Source: an uncultured candidate division Zixibacteria bacterium
GTDB taxonomy: Bacteria; Zixibacteria; MSB-5A5; GN15; FEB-12
NCBI GenBank assembly: GCA_963735035.1
Contig: CAVTJJ010000004.1
Coordinates: forward strand, 512,001-576,000
Length of the DNA stretch: 64,000 nucleotides
Direction of reading: 5' to 3'
Shown piece by piece: positions 45,215 to 52,501 of the stretch. Position 1 is the first letter of the stretch; each line of letters begins with the position of its first letter. A program made the translations under genes and the position numbers. A model generated the notes under the pieces. That model was not told the DNA's origin. It ran no database searches and saw nothing but the letters and a program-made list of their open reading frames with translations.

Positions 45215-46102
45215 ATGAACAGGGAACTCGCCACAAAAGAAAAGACCACCGTCGCGTTGTCCTCGGTTGTCGCCGCGATCTTTTTGACCGGGTCGAAGAC
45301 CGTCATCGGTCTCTTGACCGGCAGTCTTGGTATCCTGGCCGAGGCGCTTCACTCCGGTTTGGACCTGCTGGCGGCGGTCATTACCTACTTCTCTGTTCGC
45401 ATTTCCGACCGACCGGCCGATCGAGACCATCATTTCGGCCACGGTAAAGTCGAGAACCTCTCCGCCCTATTTGAGACTGTTCTACTACTGGTCACCTGCA
45501 TTTGGATCATATACGAGGCAGTGCACCGCTTGACGACCGGGAAGGTAGAAATCGAAGTCACATACTGGAGTTATATCGTCGTAATCGCTTCCATTCTAAT
45601 AGATTTCACTCGGTCGCGGGCGCTCATGAAGGCCGCTAAGAAGCACAATTCCCAGGCGTTGGAAGCCGACGCGCTTCATTTCTCGACTGATATCTGGAGC
45701 TCGGCGGTCGTGCTGCTCGGCCTGGTCTGCGCCCAAATTGGCTGGCATTCGGCCGACTCCTTCGCGGCCCTGGTGGTGGCGGCGATTGTCATATATGTCT
45801 GCTACAACCTGGGCAAACGCGCCGTCTCGGTGTTGCTCGACCGGGCGCCTGATGGTTCGCTGGAGACAATCTACGAGACCGCCGCCAAGATGCCGGAAAT
45901 TTTCGCCGTGCATGACATACGAATTCGCAATTCGGGGGCGGATGTGTTCGTCGATATGTCAATTCACGTGGACAGCCGGCTGACAATTGCCCAGGCGCAC
46001 GATATTTCGGATCGGCTGGAACTTGAATTGCAGCGGAAGATAGCCCGCTGTCAGGTTCACGTTCATCAGGAACCTCAGGAAGATTCGGAAGCGGACAGCT
46101 GA
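45215..46102 (+). CDS. Cation diffusion facilitator (FieF-like)
   Basis: AEALHSGLD, PADRDHHFGHGKVE, ADALHFSTD, AHDI...VHQEP. Confidence 0.93.
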   Translation: MNRELATKEKTTVALSSVVAAIFLTGSKTVIGLLTGSLGILAEALHSGLDLLAAVITYFSVRISDRPADRDHHFGHGKVENLSALFETVLLLVTCIWIIYEAVHRLTTGKVEIEVTYWSYIVVIASILIDFTRSRALMKAAKKHNSQALEADALHFSTDIWSSAVVLLGLVCAQIGWHSADSFAALVVAAIVIYVCYNLGKRAVSVLLDRAPDGSLETIYETAAKMPEIFAVHDIRIRNSGADVFVDMSIHVDSRLTIAQAHDISDRLELELQRKIARCQVHVHQEPQEDSEADS

Positions 46103-46193
46103 GCGGGCCTCCGCTCTCTGGTTCCCTTTTCTTGTTCGGATATCCTCTTCTGTACTTCACTCAACGGGTGGGATTTGGAGCGCGGCGTCCAGC

Positions 46194-46450
46194 CCCGTCA
46201 TGCCCGACTTGGTCGGGCAACCATGGCCACTCGCACTTGCAGAATGTGAAGCGCCAACTTGAGGGTCAGACGCGGGACGAGACTTCTTGAGCATCCGATC
46301 AATCTTTCACAAGACATTAGTCTCTATCGGTCATCAACTCGCTCGATTGTTATGTACCATTGTCCAGCGCGACAGCCCATGGACCCCCGACGCCTCGGGG
46401 GTGACGGCCTTTCGGCCGTCTATACACGTTTCGGTACCCCACCAACGGGT
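46194..46450. repeat. REP-bounded ~230-bp element homologous to ~37383-37610
   Basis: Same ends (CGTCATGCCCGAC... and ...CCCCCGACG.CTCGGGGGTGACGGCC) with a diverged interior. Confidence 0.8.
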
Positions 46451-46503
46451 GGGGATTATTCGACGTGTAACCTGCCGCGTTTCATCAACGCGACATTCGC
46501 AAG

Positions 46504-46551
46504 TCACTCCCCAAATGCAAACTGCCAGTACGCCAGCGCGGCGATCACGAT
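46504..46551 (-). pseudogene. Remnant copy of the 3' end of the adjacent zinc-ribbon gene
   Basis: Encodes IVIAALAYWQFAFGE*, identical to 46670-46717, with 7 synonymous differences. An in-frame TGA lies 2 codons upstream. Confidence 0.8.
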
Positions 46552-46669
46552 TTGAACTCATCAATACGAGCCGGCAGATGTGGGCATCTGCCGGGCACTT
46601 GGCGACATTCGAGATCGCTATCGCTCGCCCGCGAAGCACGGACGAGGCACGTGATAACGGATGCGGATA

Positions 46670-46894
46670 TCACTCCCCGAACGCAAACTGCCAGTAAGCC
46701 AATGCAGCGATTACGATCGAGAACGCCACCCCAGCAATAAACCCAGCCCGGAAATTGTCGTACCGACCAAGAAACGATTTCTTCTTTTCGGCGCGGCTAA
46801 CCAGATCGGCGTGACAGTGCTTGCAGCGGATTGCGCCCGCCGCTATGGGTTCCTTACAAAAAGGACAACGCGTGGTTTCTTTCGCCAGAGACAT
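46670..46894 (-). CDS. Small zinc-ribbon membrane protein
   Basis: CPFC...CKHC plus C-terminal TM; 74 aa. Confidence 0.8.
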   Translation of the reverse strand: MSLAKETTRCPFCKEPIAAGAIRCKHCHADLVSRAEKKKSFLGRYDNFRAGFIAGVAFSIVIAALAYWQFAFGE

Positions 46895-47138
46895 GGTTTA
46901 AGATTGCTCAGGGACAGTGTGCGAATCAACCACAAAACAAAGCGTCAGGTCACACCTCGCCCGACTCCGTCAGCCTCGGCAAGACCCCCGATCTGGTCGG
47001 GGGAAAGCTCTGACGCAACAGTATTGGGGAGCAGATGGGCGGTAAGGCAGGGACGCCTGACCGCACGCTTGACAGGTCGCCTGACCGCACGCCCGGCTGG
47101 TGCGGTAGTCGCCGTACTCGGTCCACATTCGAATCATG

Positions 47139-47358
47139 TTGACAAGTGGTCTGTGCGGGAATATTTTGGTTGTGAGACAGGGCCAGTGTTCACCAGGTAT
47201 CCGCTCAGAAATTCTCCCACTGGACTCATTTGAAATATTGATCTTTTTCACGCGGCCGGAGCGTTTTGTGTCCGACACCGAATTTGACACTCGACATTGC
47301 AAAAATTATGGGCGTGTATTCGCCCTTACCACTTCACAATATGAAAGGAGAATTTGAA
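47139..47358 (+). promoter_or_regulatory. Sigma70-type promoter and conserved leader of precursor A1
   Basis: TTGACA(47139)-17 bp-TATTTT(47162); leader homologous to 47634-47851; AAGGAG RBS at 47345. Confidence 0.7.
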
Positions 47359-47454
47359 GTGAAACTAATCCAACTGCCGGGTTTGGAGTCACATCCGAAA
47401 CCGCCGCTCTGTATCGCCAAGGGTCCGCTGTATATCATCTGCGGGCACTACTAG
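47359..47454 (+). CDS. Putative RiPP precursor A1: MKLIQLPGLESHPKPPLCIAKGPLYIICGHY (31 aa)
   Basis: AAGGAG 8 nt before GTG; paralog of 47852-47944; upstream of rSAM/SPASM genes. Confidence 0.8.
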   Translation: MKLIQLPGLESHPKPPLCIAKGPLYIICGHY

Positions 47455-47475
47455 GATTCATAGTTGAATCACAGT

Positions 47476-47506
47476 CAAGCGCCGGCGGCCTCACGGCCGG
47501 CGCTTG
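47476..47506 (+). terminator. Stem-loop after precursor A1
   Basis: CAAGCGCCGGC-GGCCTCACG-GCCGGCGCTTG; weak U-tract. Confidence 0.6.
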
Positions 47507-47633
47507 GCCACTTCGTTTCGACTCACCCACAGACATAAGCTCAGTCGCACGATTACCCCAACCGCTAAAGCACACGGGTACACTCCCTTTTCTAGGAATT
47601 CAAGTTGACTGTGTCACAGTTGATCGAATCAGG

Positions 47634-47851
47634 TTGACAAGCCGCGTGACCGAGAATATTTTGTCTCTAAGACAGGGTCAGTGCGCACCGGGTATCCGCA
47701 TTTATTTTCTTCCACTTGACTCAATTCGAATGAACTTGTTCGCACGGCCGGAGCGTTTTGTGTCCGACACCGAATTTGGCACTCGTTATTGCAGCAATAA
47801 TGGGCGTAAGTGCGCCCATTCTATGAAACCTCACACAATAGGAGACGTCAC
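47634..47851 (+). promoter_or_regulatory. Sigma70-type promoter and conserved leader of precursor A2
   Basis: TTGACA(47634)-17 bp-TATTTT(47657); AGGAG RBS at 47840. Confidence 0.7.
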
Positions 47852-47944
47852 ATGAAGTTGATCCAACTCCCCGGTATGGAGCCGGTCGAACAGAAGCCCT
47901 GCCCGTCCAAAGGCATTTGGTACATCATCTGTTCAATTCATTAA
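47852..47944 (+). CDS. Putative RiPP precursor A2: MKLIQLPGMEPVEQKPCPSKGIWYIICSIH (30 aa)
   Basis: Manual translation (below the ORF-track cutoff); AGGAG RBS; shares MKLIQLPG.E and C-x2-KG-x2-YIIC with A1. Confidence 0.82.
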   Translation: MKLIQLPGMEPVEQKPCPSKGIWYIICSIH

Positions 47945-47960
47945 TTGATAGTGTGGTAGA

Positions 47961-47990
47961 GAACATGCGTCGGTTGCCCGGCGCATGTTC
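47961..47990 (+). other. Stem-loop between precursor A2 and the first maturase
   Basis: GAACATGCGTCGG-TTGC-CCGGCGCATGTTC; no U-run, so probably a leaky terminator or mRNA stabiliser. Confidence 0.6.
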
Positions 47991-48042
47991 CTTAACATCC
48001 AGGCCCCTCAGGTTTCACCCGTAGTATCTCCTGGCATTAGAC

Positions 48043-49383
48043 ATGAAAGCTTCCCCGTATAATCATTTCTTTGAGTTGCTCGACGGCCGAGTTGTCCTCG
48101 CTTACAACAGCTTGTCTGGGAAGGTGGCCGAAATCGAGCCGGAACATTACGCGGCCGTACGAGACCTTCTGAACGACCCGGGACAGTCACGCGACGCAAA
48201 GTCCGAAGAGTTCTATCAGTGTCTGTGCGATGGCGGGTTTCTGATTCCCGACGGCGTCGATCAGCACGCCGCCCTTAGAGTAAACGCTCGGTCCGCGCGA
48301 CTTCAAGGGTCGGCCCTCACCCTGACTATTGCCCCGACCCTGGCCTGTAATTTTGCGTGCGATTACTGCTTCGAAGCGCGTTCCAACATTCTCATGTCGA
48401 AGGATACCCAGGCGGCCCTGTTGTCGTTCGTCGATCAACAACTGTATCGGTTCTCCGGCCTGCGGATCTGCTGGTTCGGCGGGGAACCGACTCTCTGCCT
48501 TCCGGTAATCGAACGGTTGCAACATCAGCTTCGAGCCCTTGCGGAAAAGCACCATGCCAGCCTGCTTCCGGCCATGATCATTACCAACGGCTACCTGATG
48601 GATGCAACCATGGCAACGCGGCTGCGTGAACTCGGTGTGAGACAGGCCCAGATCACGCTCGATGGGCCCGAGGCCGTGCACGACCGTCGACGCAAACTGC
48701 GCAATGGCAAGGGTACGTTCAGCAGAATTATCGAGAACCTTCGCGAAACGGTCGACATTCTGCGGATCAATTTGAGAATCAACATCGACAGGGACAATGT
48801 CGATACGGCCTGCGAAGTGGCCGAGATCCTCCGGCAAAACGGAATACTGGGCAAAGTGAAGGTCAACTTCGCTCAGATCACGGCATCCGACACGGTCTGC
48901 TCGGATGTCAGGGAAAGATGCCAGGACAGTCGCGAGTTCGCCGGAATCCTGGAGAAGATCTACCGCACGTTTCACGAGTCGGGAGTTCACGAAATAAATC
49001 ACCCTCAAGTATCGCCCGAGGGTACCTGTGGGGCCGTATCTGAGGGGTATTACGTGGTATCACCCAACGGTTTCCTGTTCAAATGCTGGGAGGACTTGTC
49101 GGTGACCGGCGACAAATCGATCGGTACCGTCTTTACGCCGGAGCTGAACGAACAGCAGAAGACGAATCTGGAGAGCTACCGGGCATGGCAACCACTTAAA
49201 CTCGAGGGGTGTCAGGCCTGCAAAGTCTTGCCGGTCTGCATGGGCGGCTGTCCGGCCCGCGGCCGCGAGTTGATCAACCCCACCCACGGCGCCTGTACAA
49301 CTTGGAAATATAACCTGAAAGAAATGCTGGAACTGGCTTACATCGCAGCTAACCGTCCGTCCGAGCCACACGGGAATTCATGA
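48043..49383 (+). CDS. Radical SAM/SPASM peptide maturase with ~90-aa N-terminal extension (probable RRE)
   Basis: CNFACDYC, WFGGEP, ITNG, QITLDG; SPASM C...NGFLFKC...CQACKVLPVCMGGC...C. Confidence 0.9.
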   Translation: MKASPYNHFFELLDGRVVLAYNSLSGKVAEIEPEHYAAVRDLLNDPGQSRDAKSEEFYQCLCDGGFLIPDGVDQHAALRVNARSARLQGSALTLTIAPTLACNFACDYCFEARSNILMSKDTQAALLSFVDQQLYRFSGLRICWFGGEPTLCLPVIERLQHQLRALAEKHHASLLPAMIITNGYLMDATMATRLRELGVRQAQITLDGPEAVHDRRRKLRNGKGTFSRIIENLRETVDILRINLRINIDRDNVDTACEVAEILRQNGILGKVKVNFAQITASDTVCSDVRERCQDSREFAGILEKIYRTFHESGVHEINHPQVSPEGTCGAVSEGYYVVSPNGFLFKCWEDLSVTGDKSIGTVFTPELNEQQKTNLESYRAWQPLKLEGCQACKVLPVCMGGCPARGRELINPTHGACTTWKYNLKEMLELAYIAANRPSEPHGNS

Positions 49384-50414
49384 CTGTGAACACCGCGCCT
49401 ACTACCCCTGAACGAAAGTTTGAAGTCATCGGCTGGGAAATCACCGGTCAGTGCAATTTGAAGTGTGCCCATTGTTTCACGGCCGCCGCGACCCGTCCCC
49501 ATGATGAACTCAGCACGACCGAGTGTCGCCGGGTGATAGACTCACTCCACACACTCGGTGTTGAAATGATCGGCTGGACCGGCGGCGAACCGCTCCTGCG
49601 AGCCGACCTTGAAGAGCTCAGCGCCTACGCCTGGGAAAAGGGGATGCGCAGCACGATTACGTCCAACGGCGTTCTCATGTCCGAGGAGCGTGCCGCGAAT
49701 TTAATCGCAGCCGGTAATCGCACAATTCAGATCAGCCTGGACGGTTCTACGGCTGCCAGGAACCACTTGATGCGCGGCACTACCGACGCCGAGTACGACG
49801 CCGTTGTGAAGGCAATTCGCGTATGTAAGAAGGCGGGCGCCCGCGTGGTGATGGCATCGTTGGTGGGGCGTGAAAATCTCGATGATGTCGCCGCCCTTCT
49901 CGATTTCGCAAAGCGCGAGGGGGTGGATACGATTCGGTTTTGCGGCTTCACTCCGGTTGGTCGGGGCAAACACCAGAAGGTGCAGGATCGGCTCCTCATC
50001 TCGGATCGAATGAAAGAATTGCTCGAATTTATCAGGCAGGCTCAGGAAGAGGTTTCACTTCTGACCGAGTTCGACGTCGGTTTTGGTCCAGTCCCACCGG
50101 TATTTGATTTCCACAAATGTGTCGCCGGGGTCAAGACCTGTTACATCAAAGGGAATGGCGACGTTTATCCCTGTACCGCTCTGTGTGTGCCACAATTCCT
50201 AATCGGGAATGTGCGGGAACGATCGTTGGAAGAATTGTGGGAGATGCCCATGATGAGAGCGGCGTCGGAATATCCGCACGAACAAATTACCGGCCCGTGT
50301 CGGACGTGCGACAATTTTGCCGCCTGTCACGGGGCCTGTCGCGGGGCTACTCTGGCGATGACGGGCGACATCAACGCTTCGTTTCCGCACTGTCTGTATC
50401 GAGCGGCTCTCTGA
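49380..50414 (+). CDS. Radical SAM/SPASM enzyme (PqqE/MftC/NirJ-like architecture, no N-terminal RRE)
   Basis: WEITGQCNLKCAHC, WTGGEPLLR, QISLDG; SPASM C.AG...C.I..NGDVYPC...CRTCDNFAACHGAC...C; ATGA overlap with the previous gene. Confidence 0.9.
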   Translation: MTVNTAPTTPERKFEVIGWEITGQCNLKCAHCFTAAATRPHDELSTTECRRVIDSLHTLGVEMIGWTGGEPLLRADLEELSAYAWEKGMRSTITSNGVLMSEERAANLIAAGNRTIQISLDGSTAARNHLMRGTTDAEYDAVVKAIRVCKKAGARVVMASLVGRENLDDVAALLDFAKREGVDTIRFCGFTPVGRGKHQKVQDRLLISDRMKELLEFIRQAQEEVSLLTEFDVGFGPVPPVFDFHKCVAGVKTCYIKGNGDVYPCTALCVPQFLIGNVRERSLEELWEMPMMRAASEYPHEQITGPCRTCDNFAACHGACRGATLAMTGDINASFPHCLYRAAL

Positions 50415-50468
50415 CATCTCAATCTACATAACACAAAGAGAACGTCAGGCCCGGGGGCCGTATCGTTT

Positions 50469-50721
50469 GATCGGCAGGGTTCTAACCCTGCCGTTTTTTC
50501 GGCGGGCCGGGAGGCCTGCCGATCACAGGATGAGGCTGTCTTACCCGAAAAAGAAACGGCAGGCCCGGAGGCCAAATCGTTGATCGGCAGGGTTCCAACC
50601 CTGCCGTTTTTTCGGCAGGCCCGGAGGCCTGCCGATCACGGAATGAGGCTGTCTTACCCGAAAAAGAAACGGCAGGCCGGGAGGCCAAATCGTTTGATCG
50701 GCAGGGTTCCAACCCTGCCGA
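50469..50721. repeat. Tandem ~114-bp palindromic repeat (two full copies and one partial)
   Basis: Three CGGCAGGGTTC(T/C)AACCCTGCCG hairpins alternating with GGCAGGCCCGGAGGCC-type hairpins, between convergent genes. Confidence 0.85.
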
Positions 50722-50764
50722 TTATGTTTGCTGAGATTTGTCGATCAACAATTGAAATCAGTGA

Positions 50765-52501
50765 TCAGACCGGGAACTCGACCTTGGCGAACCATTCCAA
50801 CTCAAGCTCGGGGAAGAGCGAGTCGCGCTGGGAGCAATCGCGAAAATACTGCCACTCGCCTTCGGTGCCGGTTTCTCCGGCTATCAACTTATCCGCCAGG
50901 GCGGCCATCCTCTTGAAGTCTTCGTAATGTTCGGTCAGTCGTAATTCCGCATAATCACGAGCGGCGAAAGTCGAAATCAGGAACTGCCAGTCGGACGCCG
51001 AGAGAACCATCAGCTCGCGGGCGGCCTGTTTCAGGACGTTGGTCAGGTTGTCCGTGCGTTGATCCTTATGGTCGAGCCAGAACCGGGCCAGCTCGCACAT
51101 CTTCGCTTCCGCTTCATAGATGTGCACCCAGGTCCATTCCGTGTGCTGATTGAGCCAGATGAAGTGATGATTCCCCTGGCCCCAGCTTCCTTCGGGGATG
51201 GACACAACTTGCGTCGGCTTGCGGCGGTCCAGATCCTCGGATAGGAAGGTCAGCCCGATATTCTTCGATTCACATACGTCTTTGAGAACCTTCTTGAGGA
51301 AGAGCGGTCCTTCAAACCACCAATGGCCGAACAGTTCGGCGTCATACGGTGCAACCAGAATTCCGGCGCGATCGCTTTCCTTGTTGTAAGCGCACAGGAT
51401 TTCTTCAGCCTTAGCGGCGAAATGGTCGGCGTTTTCATCGAGCCGTCCGAGTGCCCCATTGTAGTTATATTCGACCTTGTCGGCCAGGTCGGACTTTGCG
51501 GATGTGACCGCCCAGTACCGCAGGCCGCCGGGGAAACGCTTCTTGTGAAAGTCCAGATAGTGGCCGTCGCCGGGGTAGCCGTGTTCGCCAGACCAGACCA
51601 GGAGCCCGGTCTCAGGATCACGGGAGAAGATCGCGGTCGGCGCCTTGCCTTCGGTATTCGAAGCGGCGATATAGACCTCGCGTGGGGTCTTGTCGAATTC
51701 TTCCTCACGCGGTAGATACTGCTTTTCGAATTGTGACCAGAGCAACTTAAGGGCGTCGAAACGGTCGACATAAACACCGACCGACTTTCCACCCTTCAGC
51801 AGCGCCGAATCTATGATGAAGAAATCGAGACCGTTCTCGGAGAGAAATTCTTCGCACCCCTTGCGGTGATAGGCGGCCTTGCTGCCATGGATAGGTACAG
51901 GGGGCGCCCAATCATAGCGCGGTCGATAGGCGCATTCGGGGAGCCAGATGCCGCGCGGTTGGCGACCGAAATGCTTCCGGTAATTCTTCACCGCGGCTTT
52001 GGTCTGGGCCTGAAGTGATTCATCGCGGGAAAGCAGCGGATAGTAGCCGTGGGTGGCGCCGCAGGTGATGATTTCCAGGTAGCCGTCGTCCTGGAGTTTC
52101 CGGAATTCGTAAAGGATATCCTGCCCCAGCTCGTTGAATTGCTCCAGGGTACGGGAAAAGAACGTTTCCCACATGTGGGAGTTTTCCAGCATGTTGTTCT
52201 GGCCGTACTTGAAGAATTCCTCGCTGTCGTGCTTTGCCGCCTTGATCTTTTGATTCAAGTAAGAGACAAATTCGGTCTTGAAATCGGCGTCCGACAGCTG
52301 CTCGCACAAGACCGGCGAAAGGCCCATCGTCAGTTTCGGACGGTACCCTTCGGCGATGAGTTCGTGCATGATGCGGAGAAGAGGAAGATAGGTCTCGGCC
52401 GCCGCCTCGCAGAGCCAATCCGTGCCGTGCGGCCAGCGTCCGTGCGAAAGGACGTACGGCAGATGTGAGTGGAGGACGACGCTGAGATATCCTTTTTTCA
52501 T
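50765..52501 (-). CDS. GH57 1,4-alpha-glucan branching enzyme (DUF1957 type)
   Basis: LHSHLPYV, WLCEAAAETYLPL, GIWLPECAY, PYDAELFGHWWFEG, SASDWQF. Confidence 0.93.
   Translation of the reverse strand: MKKGYLSVVLHSHLPYVLSHGRWPHGTDWLCEAAAETYLPLLRIMHELIAEGYRPKLTMGLSPVLCEQLSDADFKTEFVSYLNQKIKAAKHDSEEFFKYGQNNMLENSHMWETFFSRTLEQFNELGQDILYEFRKLQDDGYLEIITCGATHGYYPLLSRDESLQAQTKAAVKNYRKHFGRQPRGIWLPECAYRPRYDWAPPVPIHGSKAAYHRKGCEEFLSENGLDFFIIDSALLKGGKSVGVYVDRFDALKLLWSQFEKQYLPREEEFDKTPREVYIAASNTEGKAPTAIFSRDPETGLLVWSGEHGYPGDGHYLDFHKKRFPGGLRYWAVTSAKSDLADKVEYNYNGALGRLDENADHFAAKAEEILCAYNKESDRAGILVAPYDAELFGHWWFEGPLFLKKVLKDVCESKNIGLTFLSEDLDRRKPTQVVSIPEGSWGQGNHHFIWLNQHTEWTWVHIYEAEAKMCELARFWLDHKDQRTDNLTNVLKQAARELMVLSASDWQFLISTFAARDYAELRLTEHYEDFKRMAALADKLIAGETGTEGEWQYFRDCSQRDSLFPELELEWFAKVEFPV

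Follow-up and report, generated by a model that had tools for sequence, protein, structure and literature searches.

A cassette of four genes that very probably directs the production of RiPPs (peptides that are made on the ribosome and modified after translation) was identified in the genome of an uncultured candidate division Zixibacteria bacterium (assembly GCA_963735035.1). It lies in a stretch of 64,000 nucleotides of contig CAVTJJ010000004.1 (positions 512,001 to 576,000), hereafter the window, and comprises two small paralogous precursor genes, A1 and A2, followed by the genes of two radical S-adenosyl-L-methionine (SAM) enzymes with SPASM domains, rSAM1 and rSAM2. Taken as a whole, the cassette is likely a divergent branch, in the Fibrobacteres-Chlorobi-Bacteroidetes (FCB) lineage, of the radical SAM RiPP systems of the thioether type. 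The peptides recur beside orthologues of both enzymes, which supports the RiPP reading proposed in an initial annotation of this DNA. The genes and their ribosome-binding sites (RBSs), in window coordinates, are the following.

47344-47350, + strand: RBS of A1, AAAGGAG, with the GTG eight bases downstream
47359-47454, + strand: precursor A1, 31 residues, GTG start; product MKLIQLPGLESHPKPPLCIAKGPLYIICGHY, Cx9C; putative leader at about residues 1-13, putative core KPPLCIAKGPLYIICGHY
47840-47844, + strand: RBS of A2, AGGAG, with the ATG seven bases downstream
47852-47944, + strand: precursor A2, 30 residues, ATG start; product MKLIQLPGMEPVEQKPCPSKGIWYIICSIH, Cx9C; putative core KPCPSKGIWYIICSIH
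48043-49383, + strand: rSAM1, 446 residues; RRE-like domain, radical SAM core and SPASM domain
49380-50414, + strand: rSAM2, 344 residues, without RRE; radical SAM core and SPASM domain, ATGA overlap with rSAM1

The RRE is the RiPP precursor peptide recognition element. Both small open reading frames (ORFs) were found where the initial annotation had placed them, with good RBSs and two cysteines in the Cx9C spacing. The two radical SAM/SPASM genes were likewise as described, with their ATGA overlap, and the CxxxCxxC motif and SPASM cysteines are present in both enzymes.

Occurrence of the peptides with the enzyme pair

A profile of the peptide family retrieved only the A1 and A2 sites from the 3.6-Mb genome at E ≤ 1. 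Relatives of rSAM1 with at least 41% identity are encoded in 11 of 61 related genomes, with a fragment in a twelfth, and relatives of rSAM2 with at least 47% identity occur in the same 12 genomes, on the same contigs. One hundred fetched loci were partitioned with hidden Markov models, at scores of at least 603 bits for rSAM1 and at least 391 bits for the rSAM2 family. All 14 loci with an rSAM1 at this score have an rSAM2-family gene directly downstream. The other 86 consist of 13 loci with a different second radical SAM gene and 73 without a second one, the latter including Clo7bot loci (see below) and two loci cut by contig ends.

The initial annotation held that homologues of the enzymes elsewhere should be accompanied by similar small ORFs. 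Genes of peptides with the same leader, preceded by strong GGAGG-type RBSs, were found upstream of or between the enzyme genes, clearly so in 13 of the 15 genome loci of the window clade. Within this clade, locus L039 has a weaker peptide match that lacks a canonical start. The locus of genome G002 is broken across contigs, and its peptide, MKLISLPGFGTAVKPPPCIGKGPYYIICGKYKDE, is encoded at the end of another contig. Such a peptide gene is also present in every metagenome locus with at least 46% identity (11 of 11). When 1.84 billion representative sequences were searched with the peptide profile, 23 matches were obtained at E ≤ 0.001, of which 22 are family peptides of 28-60 residues and one is a repeat protein of 281 residues, probably spurious. 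Cores of the A1 type were seen in other metagenomes (P0253, P0255, P0257, P0260 and P0267), as were cores of the A2 type (P0242, P0252 and P0259). The expectation that gene callers would miss or mis-start both precursors held for A1: neither its present form nor five other members are in the protein collection. It did not hold for A2, which had been called, as had three homologues, all four being present there; no member of the family bears a name.

None of the NCBIfam or Pfam models for SCIFF, mycofactocin, pyrroloquinoline quinone (PQQ) or other precursors matched the peptides, in line with the earlier view that they do not belong to the SCIFF, mycofactocin or PQQ precursors.

Variants of the gene arrangement were also encountered. 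Loci L027 (genome G047) and L028 (genome G050) contain two tandem rSAM1 paralogues before rSAM2, and L028 also encodes three distinct precursors, after which comes a putative sigma/anti-sigma pair. These two loci resemble cases of enzyme duplication alongside precursor diversification.

The N-terminal domain of rSAM1 and the probable leader peptide

rSAM1 consists of an RRE-like domain (residues 1-88, nucleotides 48043-48306), a radical SAM core with the cluster-motif cysteines C102, C106 and C109 (nucleotides 48346-48369) and a SPASM domain with seven cysteines, C329, C348, C390/393/399/403 and C418 (nucleotides 49027-49296). The radical SAM and SPASM cysteines are invariant in 48 sequences. 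In the SPASM test of the enzymes, the models TIGR04085 (51.3 bits, cut-off 27) and PF13186 (42.4 bits, cut-off 21.5) were matched above their cut-offs. The AlphaFold2 model, with a predicted local distance difference test score (pLDDT) of 89.4, consists of an N-terminal β3-α3 domain (residues 7-87), a radical SAM barrel and a SPASM domain. No match to the Pfam PqqD model was obtained.

The N-terminus is the most conserved part of the peptides across the subfamilies, in keeping with the initial proposal that it serves as leader. A complex of rSAM1 with A1 was modelled and scored 0.74 (three runs at 0.74, 0.74 and 0.75), the best of three controls scoring 0.00. Among solved complexes 116 of 157 attain the mark passed here, among mismatched pairs 2 of 215; these counts are only a rough guide, since our own alignments were used. 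Contact agreement between the runs was at least 51%, and the pLDDT of the partner at least 49. In the model, residues 1-9 and 11 of the peptide contact residues 20-32, 35, 39 and 56-64 of rSAM1. On the N-terminal domain, this predicted interface uses the strand-and-helix face, as is usual when an RRE binds a leader. From the conservation and the complex model, the assignment of the leader and of the RRE is considered likely.

Sequence motifs of the core peptides

The peptides fall into subfamilies. Group A includes those of the window, of G002 and of loci L034, L035, L121, L122 and L126, as well as several metagenome peptides, and has a leader of the form MK/RLIxLPG. Its core is built from a module of ten residues, P-x-Tyr-Ile-Ile-Cys-x-x-[Lys/Asn]-Gly, in 1.5 to 3 copies, as in MRLITLPGVTFARKPHYIICGVKGPLYIICGHY; the module is repeated two to three times with a period of ten in L034, L035, L121, L122 and L126. 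Group B comprises the peptides of most Zixibacteria and of Ignavibacteria, with cores such as KPCPCYKKLFLILPPW and a gene that often lies between those of the two enzymes. Group C belongs to a sister clade of 13 loci (MIFLIEPNS...C..KC...LYGI), which is paired with another second radical SAM enzyme and includes locus L002 of the genome studied here.

The residue three positions after each cysteine was tabulated for 17 distinct group-A peptides with 35 cysteines: Lys 13, Tyr 11, Asn 5, His 4, Trp 1 and Phe 1. As these peptides are kin, the regularity should be taken as a pattern without statistical weight. Cys-x-x-Tyr as a rule for every subfamily was discarded, because group C and part of group B do not follow it. 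The C-termini vary, ending in Tyr, His, Trp or Phe or in tails such as YKDE, YK or YKE.

Locus L002 (positions 1-4287 of contig C2 of the same genome, G000) holds another cassette, paralogous to the first. Three precursor genes in tandem (MIFLIEPNS..PP.C..KC...LYGI) are joined there by a paralogue of rSAM1 with 34% identity and by a different second radical SAM gene, whose best matches are nif11_3 and the GDL type (about 229 bits); an ABC transporter comes next. Cassettes of this type are also present in L018-L023, L025, L038, L052, L064, L075, L077 and L083.

Relationship to known maturation systems

The best family matches of rSAM1 are TIGR04334, the Clo7bot maturase (307.9 bits, cut-off 600), and TIGR04463 (305.5 bits, cut-off 525), followed by CefB, FlmE/OhkG, geopeptide and PapB (127 bits, cut-off 340), all below cut-off. 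For SCIFF (TIGR03973/TIGR03974), the maturase model scored 73.5 bits against a cut-off of 425, and the core has two cysteines, not six.

Clo7bot (peptide TIGR04333, maturase TIGR04334) is a curated family for which no bench study was found in the literature covered. Its peptides, like those described here, are short (30-50 residues), begin with MK[FLY]I..P and are encoded by tandem genes with strong RBSs; its maturase has the same succession of RRE, radical SAM and SPASM domains and about 32% identity to rSAM1. The initial annotation had not recognised the precursor motif as that of SCIFF, mycofactocin, PQQ, streptide or darobactin. No curated model matches the peptides, TIGR04333 included, which at E ≤ 10 retrieved neither A1 nor A2 nor any of three homologues. 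The leader, however, has a counterpart elsewhere, as hhalign aligned it with the Clo7bot leader over residues 1-11 (11 columns, probability 74%, E 2.8e-5), whereas the cores do not align. Two true Clo7bot loci, L055 and L066, served for comparison. Their maturases reach 722.6 and 768.5 bits and their peptides, beginning with MK[FY]I[VK]KP, 38.9 and 43.2 bits (TIGR04333 cut-off 31). Each has one radical SAM gene and nine tandem precursors, and the hosts are Clostridia, not Zixibacteria or Ignavibacteria. Clo7bot cores contain about 4-8 cysteines, those of the cassette and its relatives 2-3 in Ile-Ile-Cys modules.

TIGR04463 includes CrpC of Methanococcus voltae, which has been shown experimentally to install ranthionine, a thioether formed from Cys. 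The available part of that report (PMC13692751) describes the same domain layout, with three [4Fe-4S] clusters, and substrates that are large Cys-rich proteins with an N-terminal region of 47 residues, in contrast to the peptides of about 30 residues here; the gene cluster, as described in that part, has no second radical SAM gene. The nearest solved relative of rSAM1 is CteB (profile E 3e-25; template modelling (TM) score of the fold 0.71), the thioether-forming SCIFF enzyme. In CteB and the PapB-type ranthipeptide maturases (Protein Data Bank entries 5wgg and 5why) an N-terminal RRE binds the leader. The identity between CteB and rSAM1 is only 18%, and neither the six-Cys core of SCIFF nor the Cx3D motifs of PapB substrates are found in the peptides.

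As the leader aligns with that of Clo7bot and the first enzyme is related, the system would be a divergent branch and not an isolated invention. Judged by sequence, it is a branch of the Clo7bot/TIGR04463 superfamily that lies below the thresholds of both curated families, and it sets itself off by the Cys-poor, Ile-rich, modular core and by the addition of a second enzyme resembling PqqE and MftC.

The possible role of the second enzyme

rSAM2 has no N-terminal domain in its AlphaFold2 model (pLDDT 92.4). The radical SAM cysteines are C25, C29 and C32 (nucleotides 49452-49475), and the SPASM cysteines (nucleotides 50118-50393) are C247, C265, C307/310/316/320 and C338, including the Cx2Cx5Cx3C motif; all of these cysteines are invariant in 40 sequences. 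Its best families are NirJ2 (185.6 bits), MftC (TIGR03962, 181 bits, cut-off 265), AhbD (180.1 bits) and AhbC (160.6 bits), and PqqE (TIGR02109) scored 133.4 bits against a cut-off of 381. Among solved structures PqqE (6c8v) is the closest by sequence (E 9e-23) and by fold (TMt 0.74). The initial annotation had considered that the enzymes might fall into characterised non-peptide families; neither reaches the cut-offs of AhbC, AhbD, NirJ or anSME, which range from 350 to 650 bits, the anSME scores being 85.8 and 90.1 bits.

The closest functional analogy for the cooperation of an RRE-bearing with an RRE-less enzyme is thuricin CD, with its two precursors TrnA and TrnB and two radical SAM enzymes, TrnC and TrnD, which have to act as a complex according to the part of PMC12093266 that was available. 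The likeness is one of architecture alone and involves no sequence comparison. Since rSAM2 has no RRE, is coupled to rSAM1 through the ATGA overlap and strictly co-occurs with it, and since thuricin CD provides a precedent, rSAM2 would most likely act on the same peptide, recruited through rSAM1, and might introduce a second kind of cross-link. The proposal of such a cross-link is made with low confidence.

The analogy can be carried further. A1 and A2 would then yield two different mature peptides acting together, and the two enzymes would form one obligate complex in which only one radical SAM activity is essential. The window does hold two precursors and two coupled radical SAM genes, cores of both types recur in other metagenomes, the duplication is old with both copies maintained (see below), and TrnC/TrnD behave in this way in the available part of PMC12093266, rSAM2 being without RRE. 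In most related loci, however, just one precursor accompanies this pair of enzymes (L034, L035, L029, L030, L032 and L036), so that the second enzyme is not tied to a second peptide, and these loci carry two to three modules within one peptide instead. A two-peptide system of this kind is thus considered unlikely, though it is the only one of the alternative readings that retains an appreciable probability.

The resemblance to PqqE and MftC raises the question of a peptide-derived cofactor. In this case the peptides would be consumed in the cell to give a small redox-active molecule, with rSAM2 acting on Tyr as MftC or PqqE does. Both of these, like rSAM2, lack a fused RRE, and their substrates are peptides that contain Tyr. 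The last residue of A1 is Tyr, neither an exporter nor a protease is encoded in the window, and one homologue was automatically named MftC by the Joint Genome Institute (JGI). The scores of rSAM2 are nevertheless below the MftC and PqqE cut-offs. No small RRE protein such as MftB or PqqD is encoded among the window neighbours, nor are MftD-F or any of PqqA-D, and neither a conserved EY or GVY core in the peptides nor other genes of these pathways near the window cassette were found. The cores are variable, modular and multi-copy, whereas those of cofactor precursors are invariant, ABC transporters are present in some related loci, and the C-terminus is not conserved. The last point also ruled out a decarboxylation of the C-terminal Tyr of the MftC kind. 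A cofactor is therefore improbable.

Still less probable is that rSAM2 is an enzyme of the AhbD, NirJ or heme d1 type, standing by chance beside a one-enzyme RiPP system. These families provide its top NCBIfam matches, and two homologues are named 'AdoMet-dependent heme synthase' by JGI, but the scores are far below cut-offs of 500-650 bits, rSAM2 overlaps rSAM1 and occurs only where rSAM1 does (12 of 61 genomes, 14 of 14 loci), the enzyme genes of several loci have the precursor gene between them, and no other gene for heme d1 or alternative heme synthesis is near the window cassette.

The names 'MftC' and 'AdoMet-dependent heme synthase' appear in the source annotations of the rSAM2 homologues P0122, P0128 and P0207. 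As the window protein is below both cut-offs, these names are probably over-annotations.

Proposed maturation

Under the preferred reading, that of a divergent thioether-type branch, the two paralogous precursors would be transcribed from promoters of their own. Their first 9-13 residues (MKLIQLPG...) would be a very short leader which, according to the complex model, docks as a β-strand on the N-terminal RRE of rSAM1. rSAM1 would most likely turn the core cysteines into thioether rings, either ranthionine or sactionine; this chemistry, proposed from the homology to CteB, CrpC and the PapB-type enzymes, is slightly favoured over its absence. The acceptor is best guessed to lie at Cys+3, where it would be Lys or Asn in internal modules and Tyr, His, Trp or Phe in the C-terminal module. 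The regularity of the motif points to such a topology, from Cys(i) to i+3, and it is put forward tentatively, as doubtful. rSAM2, which shares translational coupling and strict co-inheritance with rSAM1, would most likely work on the same peptide, either in a complex of the two enzymes, after the example of TrnC and TrnD, or on the product of rSAM1.

A bolder version would make the products a new structural class of RiPPs, in which the RRE of rSAM1 reads an unusually short leader (about 11-13 residues), both enzymes form one heteromeric machine, and the Cys of each ten-residue module is tied to the residue at Cys+3, giving two chemically distinct small rings, Cys-Lys/Asn and Cys-aromatic, made by one enzyme each. 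It is regarded as rather unlikely. The literature covered gave no precedent for a thioether installed by a radical SAM enzyme between Cys and the side chain of Lys, or of Tyr or His.

Several observations weigh against the proposed maturation. The chemistry is drawn from homology at 18-34% identity, and both enzymes score below the cut-off of every curated family. Among radical SAM/SPASM relatives, the formation of C-C or C-O links, of cyclopropanes and of epimers also occurs. In the complex, the fold of the peptide itself is uncertain (pLDDT 49-50) and its core is not placed in the active site. RRE-leader complexes have already been solved for CteB, SuiB and ChlB, and the success of the model may partly be a memory of these. 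The Cys+3 rule is weaker in group B, where the position is occupied by Tyr (23), Lys (17) or Arg (6), but also by Asp, Met, Leu or Phe, or by nothing. Finally, the window has no protease or exporter that could account for leader removal and export, and ABC transporters accompany only some of the related loci.

The duplicated precursor module

Each precursor gene is part of a tandem module of about 495 nucleotides, made of a sigma-70-like promoter, a 5' leader of about 185 nucleotides, an RBS and the ORF. The upstream elements of the two copies are listed here.

47139-47167, + strand: promoter P1 for A1, TTGACA-17-TATTTT, 10 of 12 matches in a consensus scan; duplicated at P2
47172-47358, + strand: 5' leader of A1, about 185 nucleotides, with a 33-nucleotide block (47254-47286) identical in both copies
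47634-47662, + strand: promoter P2 for A2 and, by read-through, the enzymes, TTGACA-17-TATTTT, 10 of 12 matches in a consensus scan
47667-47851, + strand: 5' leader of A2, duplicate of that of A1, with the 33-nucleotide block at 47746-47778; 72% identity between the copies

The initial annotation had noted that the conserved blocks of the two peptides differ by synonymous changes. The comparison of these blocks in A1 and A2 gave a proportion of synonymous differences (pS) of about 1.0, that is saturation, and a proportion of nonsynonymous differences (pN) of 0.22; pN was smaller than pS in all ten pairs among five group-A genes. The measure is biased, as the blocks were picked by the analyst as conserved. 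Because the synonymous sites of A1 and A2 are saturated, the duplication must be old.

The idea that the small ORFs are not substrates, being chance ORFs or regulatory leader peptides in a long 5' untranslated region (UTR), could draw on their shortness, on their position inside a duplicated non-coding module that is itself conserved and on the absence of A1 in this form from the protein collection, but it is effectively refuted by the comparative data, since the peptide is conserved across genera and phyla and the flanking UTR is not, pN is below pS, both genes have strong RBSs, the complex model passes, and the peptide with its conserved, Cys-containing C-terminal core is always kept while its gene moves between positions upstream of and between the enzymes.

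The module's non-coding sequence has 72% identity from copy to copy and exceeds the synonymous sites of the ORFs in conservation, and the perfect 33-nucleotide block of the 5' leaders occurs only twice in the whole genome. The leader RNA or DNA seems to be under a constraint of its own or subject to gene conversion. The 5' leaders are not conserved in two other genera, and the match between the window and G002, a genome of the same genus, is limited to the RBS and the ORF. On these grounds a conserved riboswitch was rejected. An Rfam scan of 46000-51000 at E ≤ 1 gave nothing in the 5' UTRs, and folding of the two UTR sequences as an alignment gave four double-sided changes in 35 pairs, too few to claim a structure. 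No coding signal was found in any frame of the 5' leaders (pN/pS 0.77-1.10 over three frames); with these values and no Pfam match, the 73-residue ORFs that span the UTRs (47136-47357 and 47634-47855) were rejected as genes.

The duplicated 5' leader may serve as a site for a regulator or as an RNA element. The metagenome protein P0257 has its start misplaced within its UTR, which suggests that a close relative shares the 5' leader.

Transcription and flanking sequences

Three further elements of the transcription unit were identified.

47474-47508, + strand: GC-rich hairpin of 13 bp after A1, without U-run, from the fold of the flanking stretch
47961-47990, + strand: hairpin of 13 bp between A2 and rSAM1, without U-run (inverted repeat I21)
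50472-50499, + strand: intrinsic terminator of the operon, GC stem of 9 bp followed by a T6 run; first of three copies in a 113-bp repeat

The region of the A1 hairpin (47452-47525) folds with -34.4 kcal/mol (z -5.18), a value equalled by none of 200 shuffled sequences, and that of the A2 hairpin (47942-48045) with -34.2 kcal/mol (z -2.78). The hairpin trailing A1 may terminate transcription in part or stabilise the RNA. No promoter with 10 of 12 matches was found between A2 and rSAM1 in the consensus scan. With only P2 and P1 upstream of rSAM1 at this level, the enzymes are probably expressed by read-through from P2 and P1. The hairpins after each precursor probably keep the precursor mRNA above that of the read-through enzyme genes.

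Short direct repeats (family D5, 12-nucleotide spacing) lie at 47051-47098, 40-90 nucleotides 5' of P1, with CGCCTGACCGCACGC present twice. They are absent 5' of P2 and could be a binding site for a regulator. Further upstream, a divergent gene (46670-46894, - strand) encodes a zinc-ribbon protein of 74 residues with a C-terminal hydrophobic segment; a 57-nucleotide piece of its 3' end is repeated 166 nucleotides away with 81% identity (46495-46551). Downstream of the cassette, 50441-50723 contains three tandem 113-bp units; in each, a terminator-like hairpin, rich in GC and with a T-run, is accompanied by another inverted repeat. These units resemble repetitive extragenic palindromic (REP) elements and lie between convergent genes. 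Two of them gave isrK-like matches in Rfam at 21.4 and 20.1 bits, below the gathering score of 50.

Significance

New chemistry for peptide cross-links currently comes mainly from radical SAM/SPASM enzymes. The cassette is a compact case, with four genes and substrates of about 30 residues, conserved across Zixibacteria and Ignavibacteria, and its peptides are claimed by no curated model. The literature search, to which supplementary compendia of radical SAM RiPPs (e.g. PMC10288494) did not belong, found no paper on this peptide family. Peptide systems with two radical SAM enzymes are not new as such, thuricin CD being one in the available part of PMC12093266.

For genome annotation, the cassette exemplifies 30-codon genes with GTG starts that are missed or mis-started next to radical SAM gene pairs, and rSAM2 homologues that are automatically named MftC or heme synthase without support. 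It is a solid and well-delimited target for genome mining rather than a categorically new system. Its modular core predicts a loss of 2 Da per cysteine and rings that would span Cys to Cys+3. The cassette also provides a natural test of how an RRE-less enzyme resembling PqqE and MftC may be recruited by an RRE-bearing partner, a question opened by thuricin CD.

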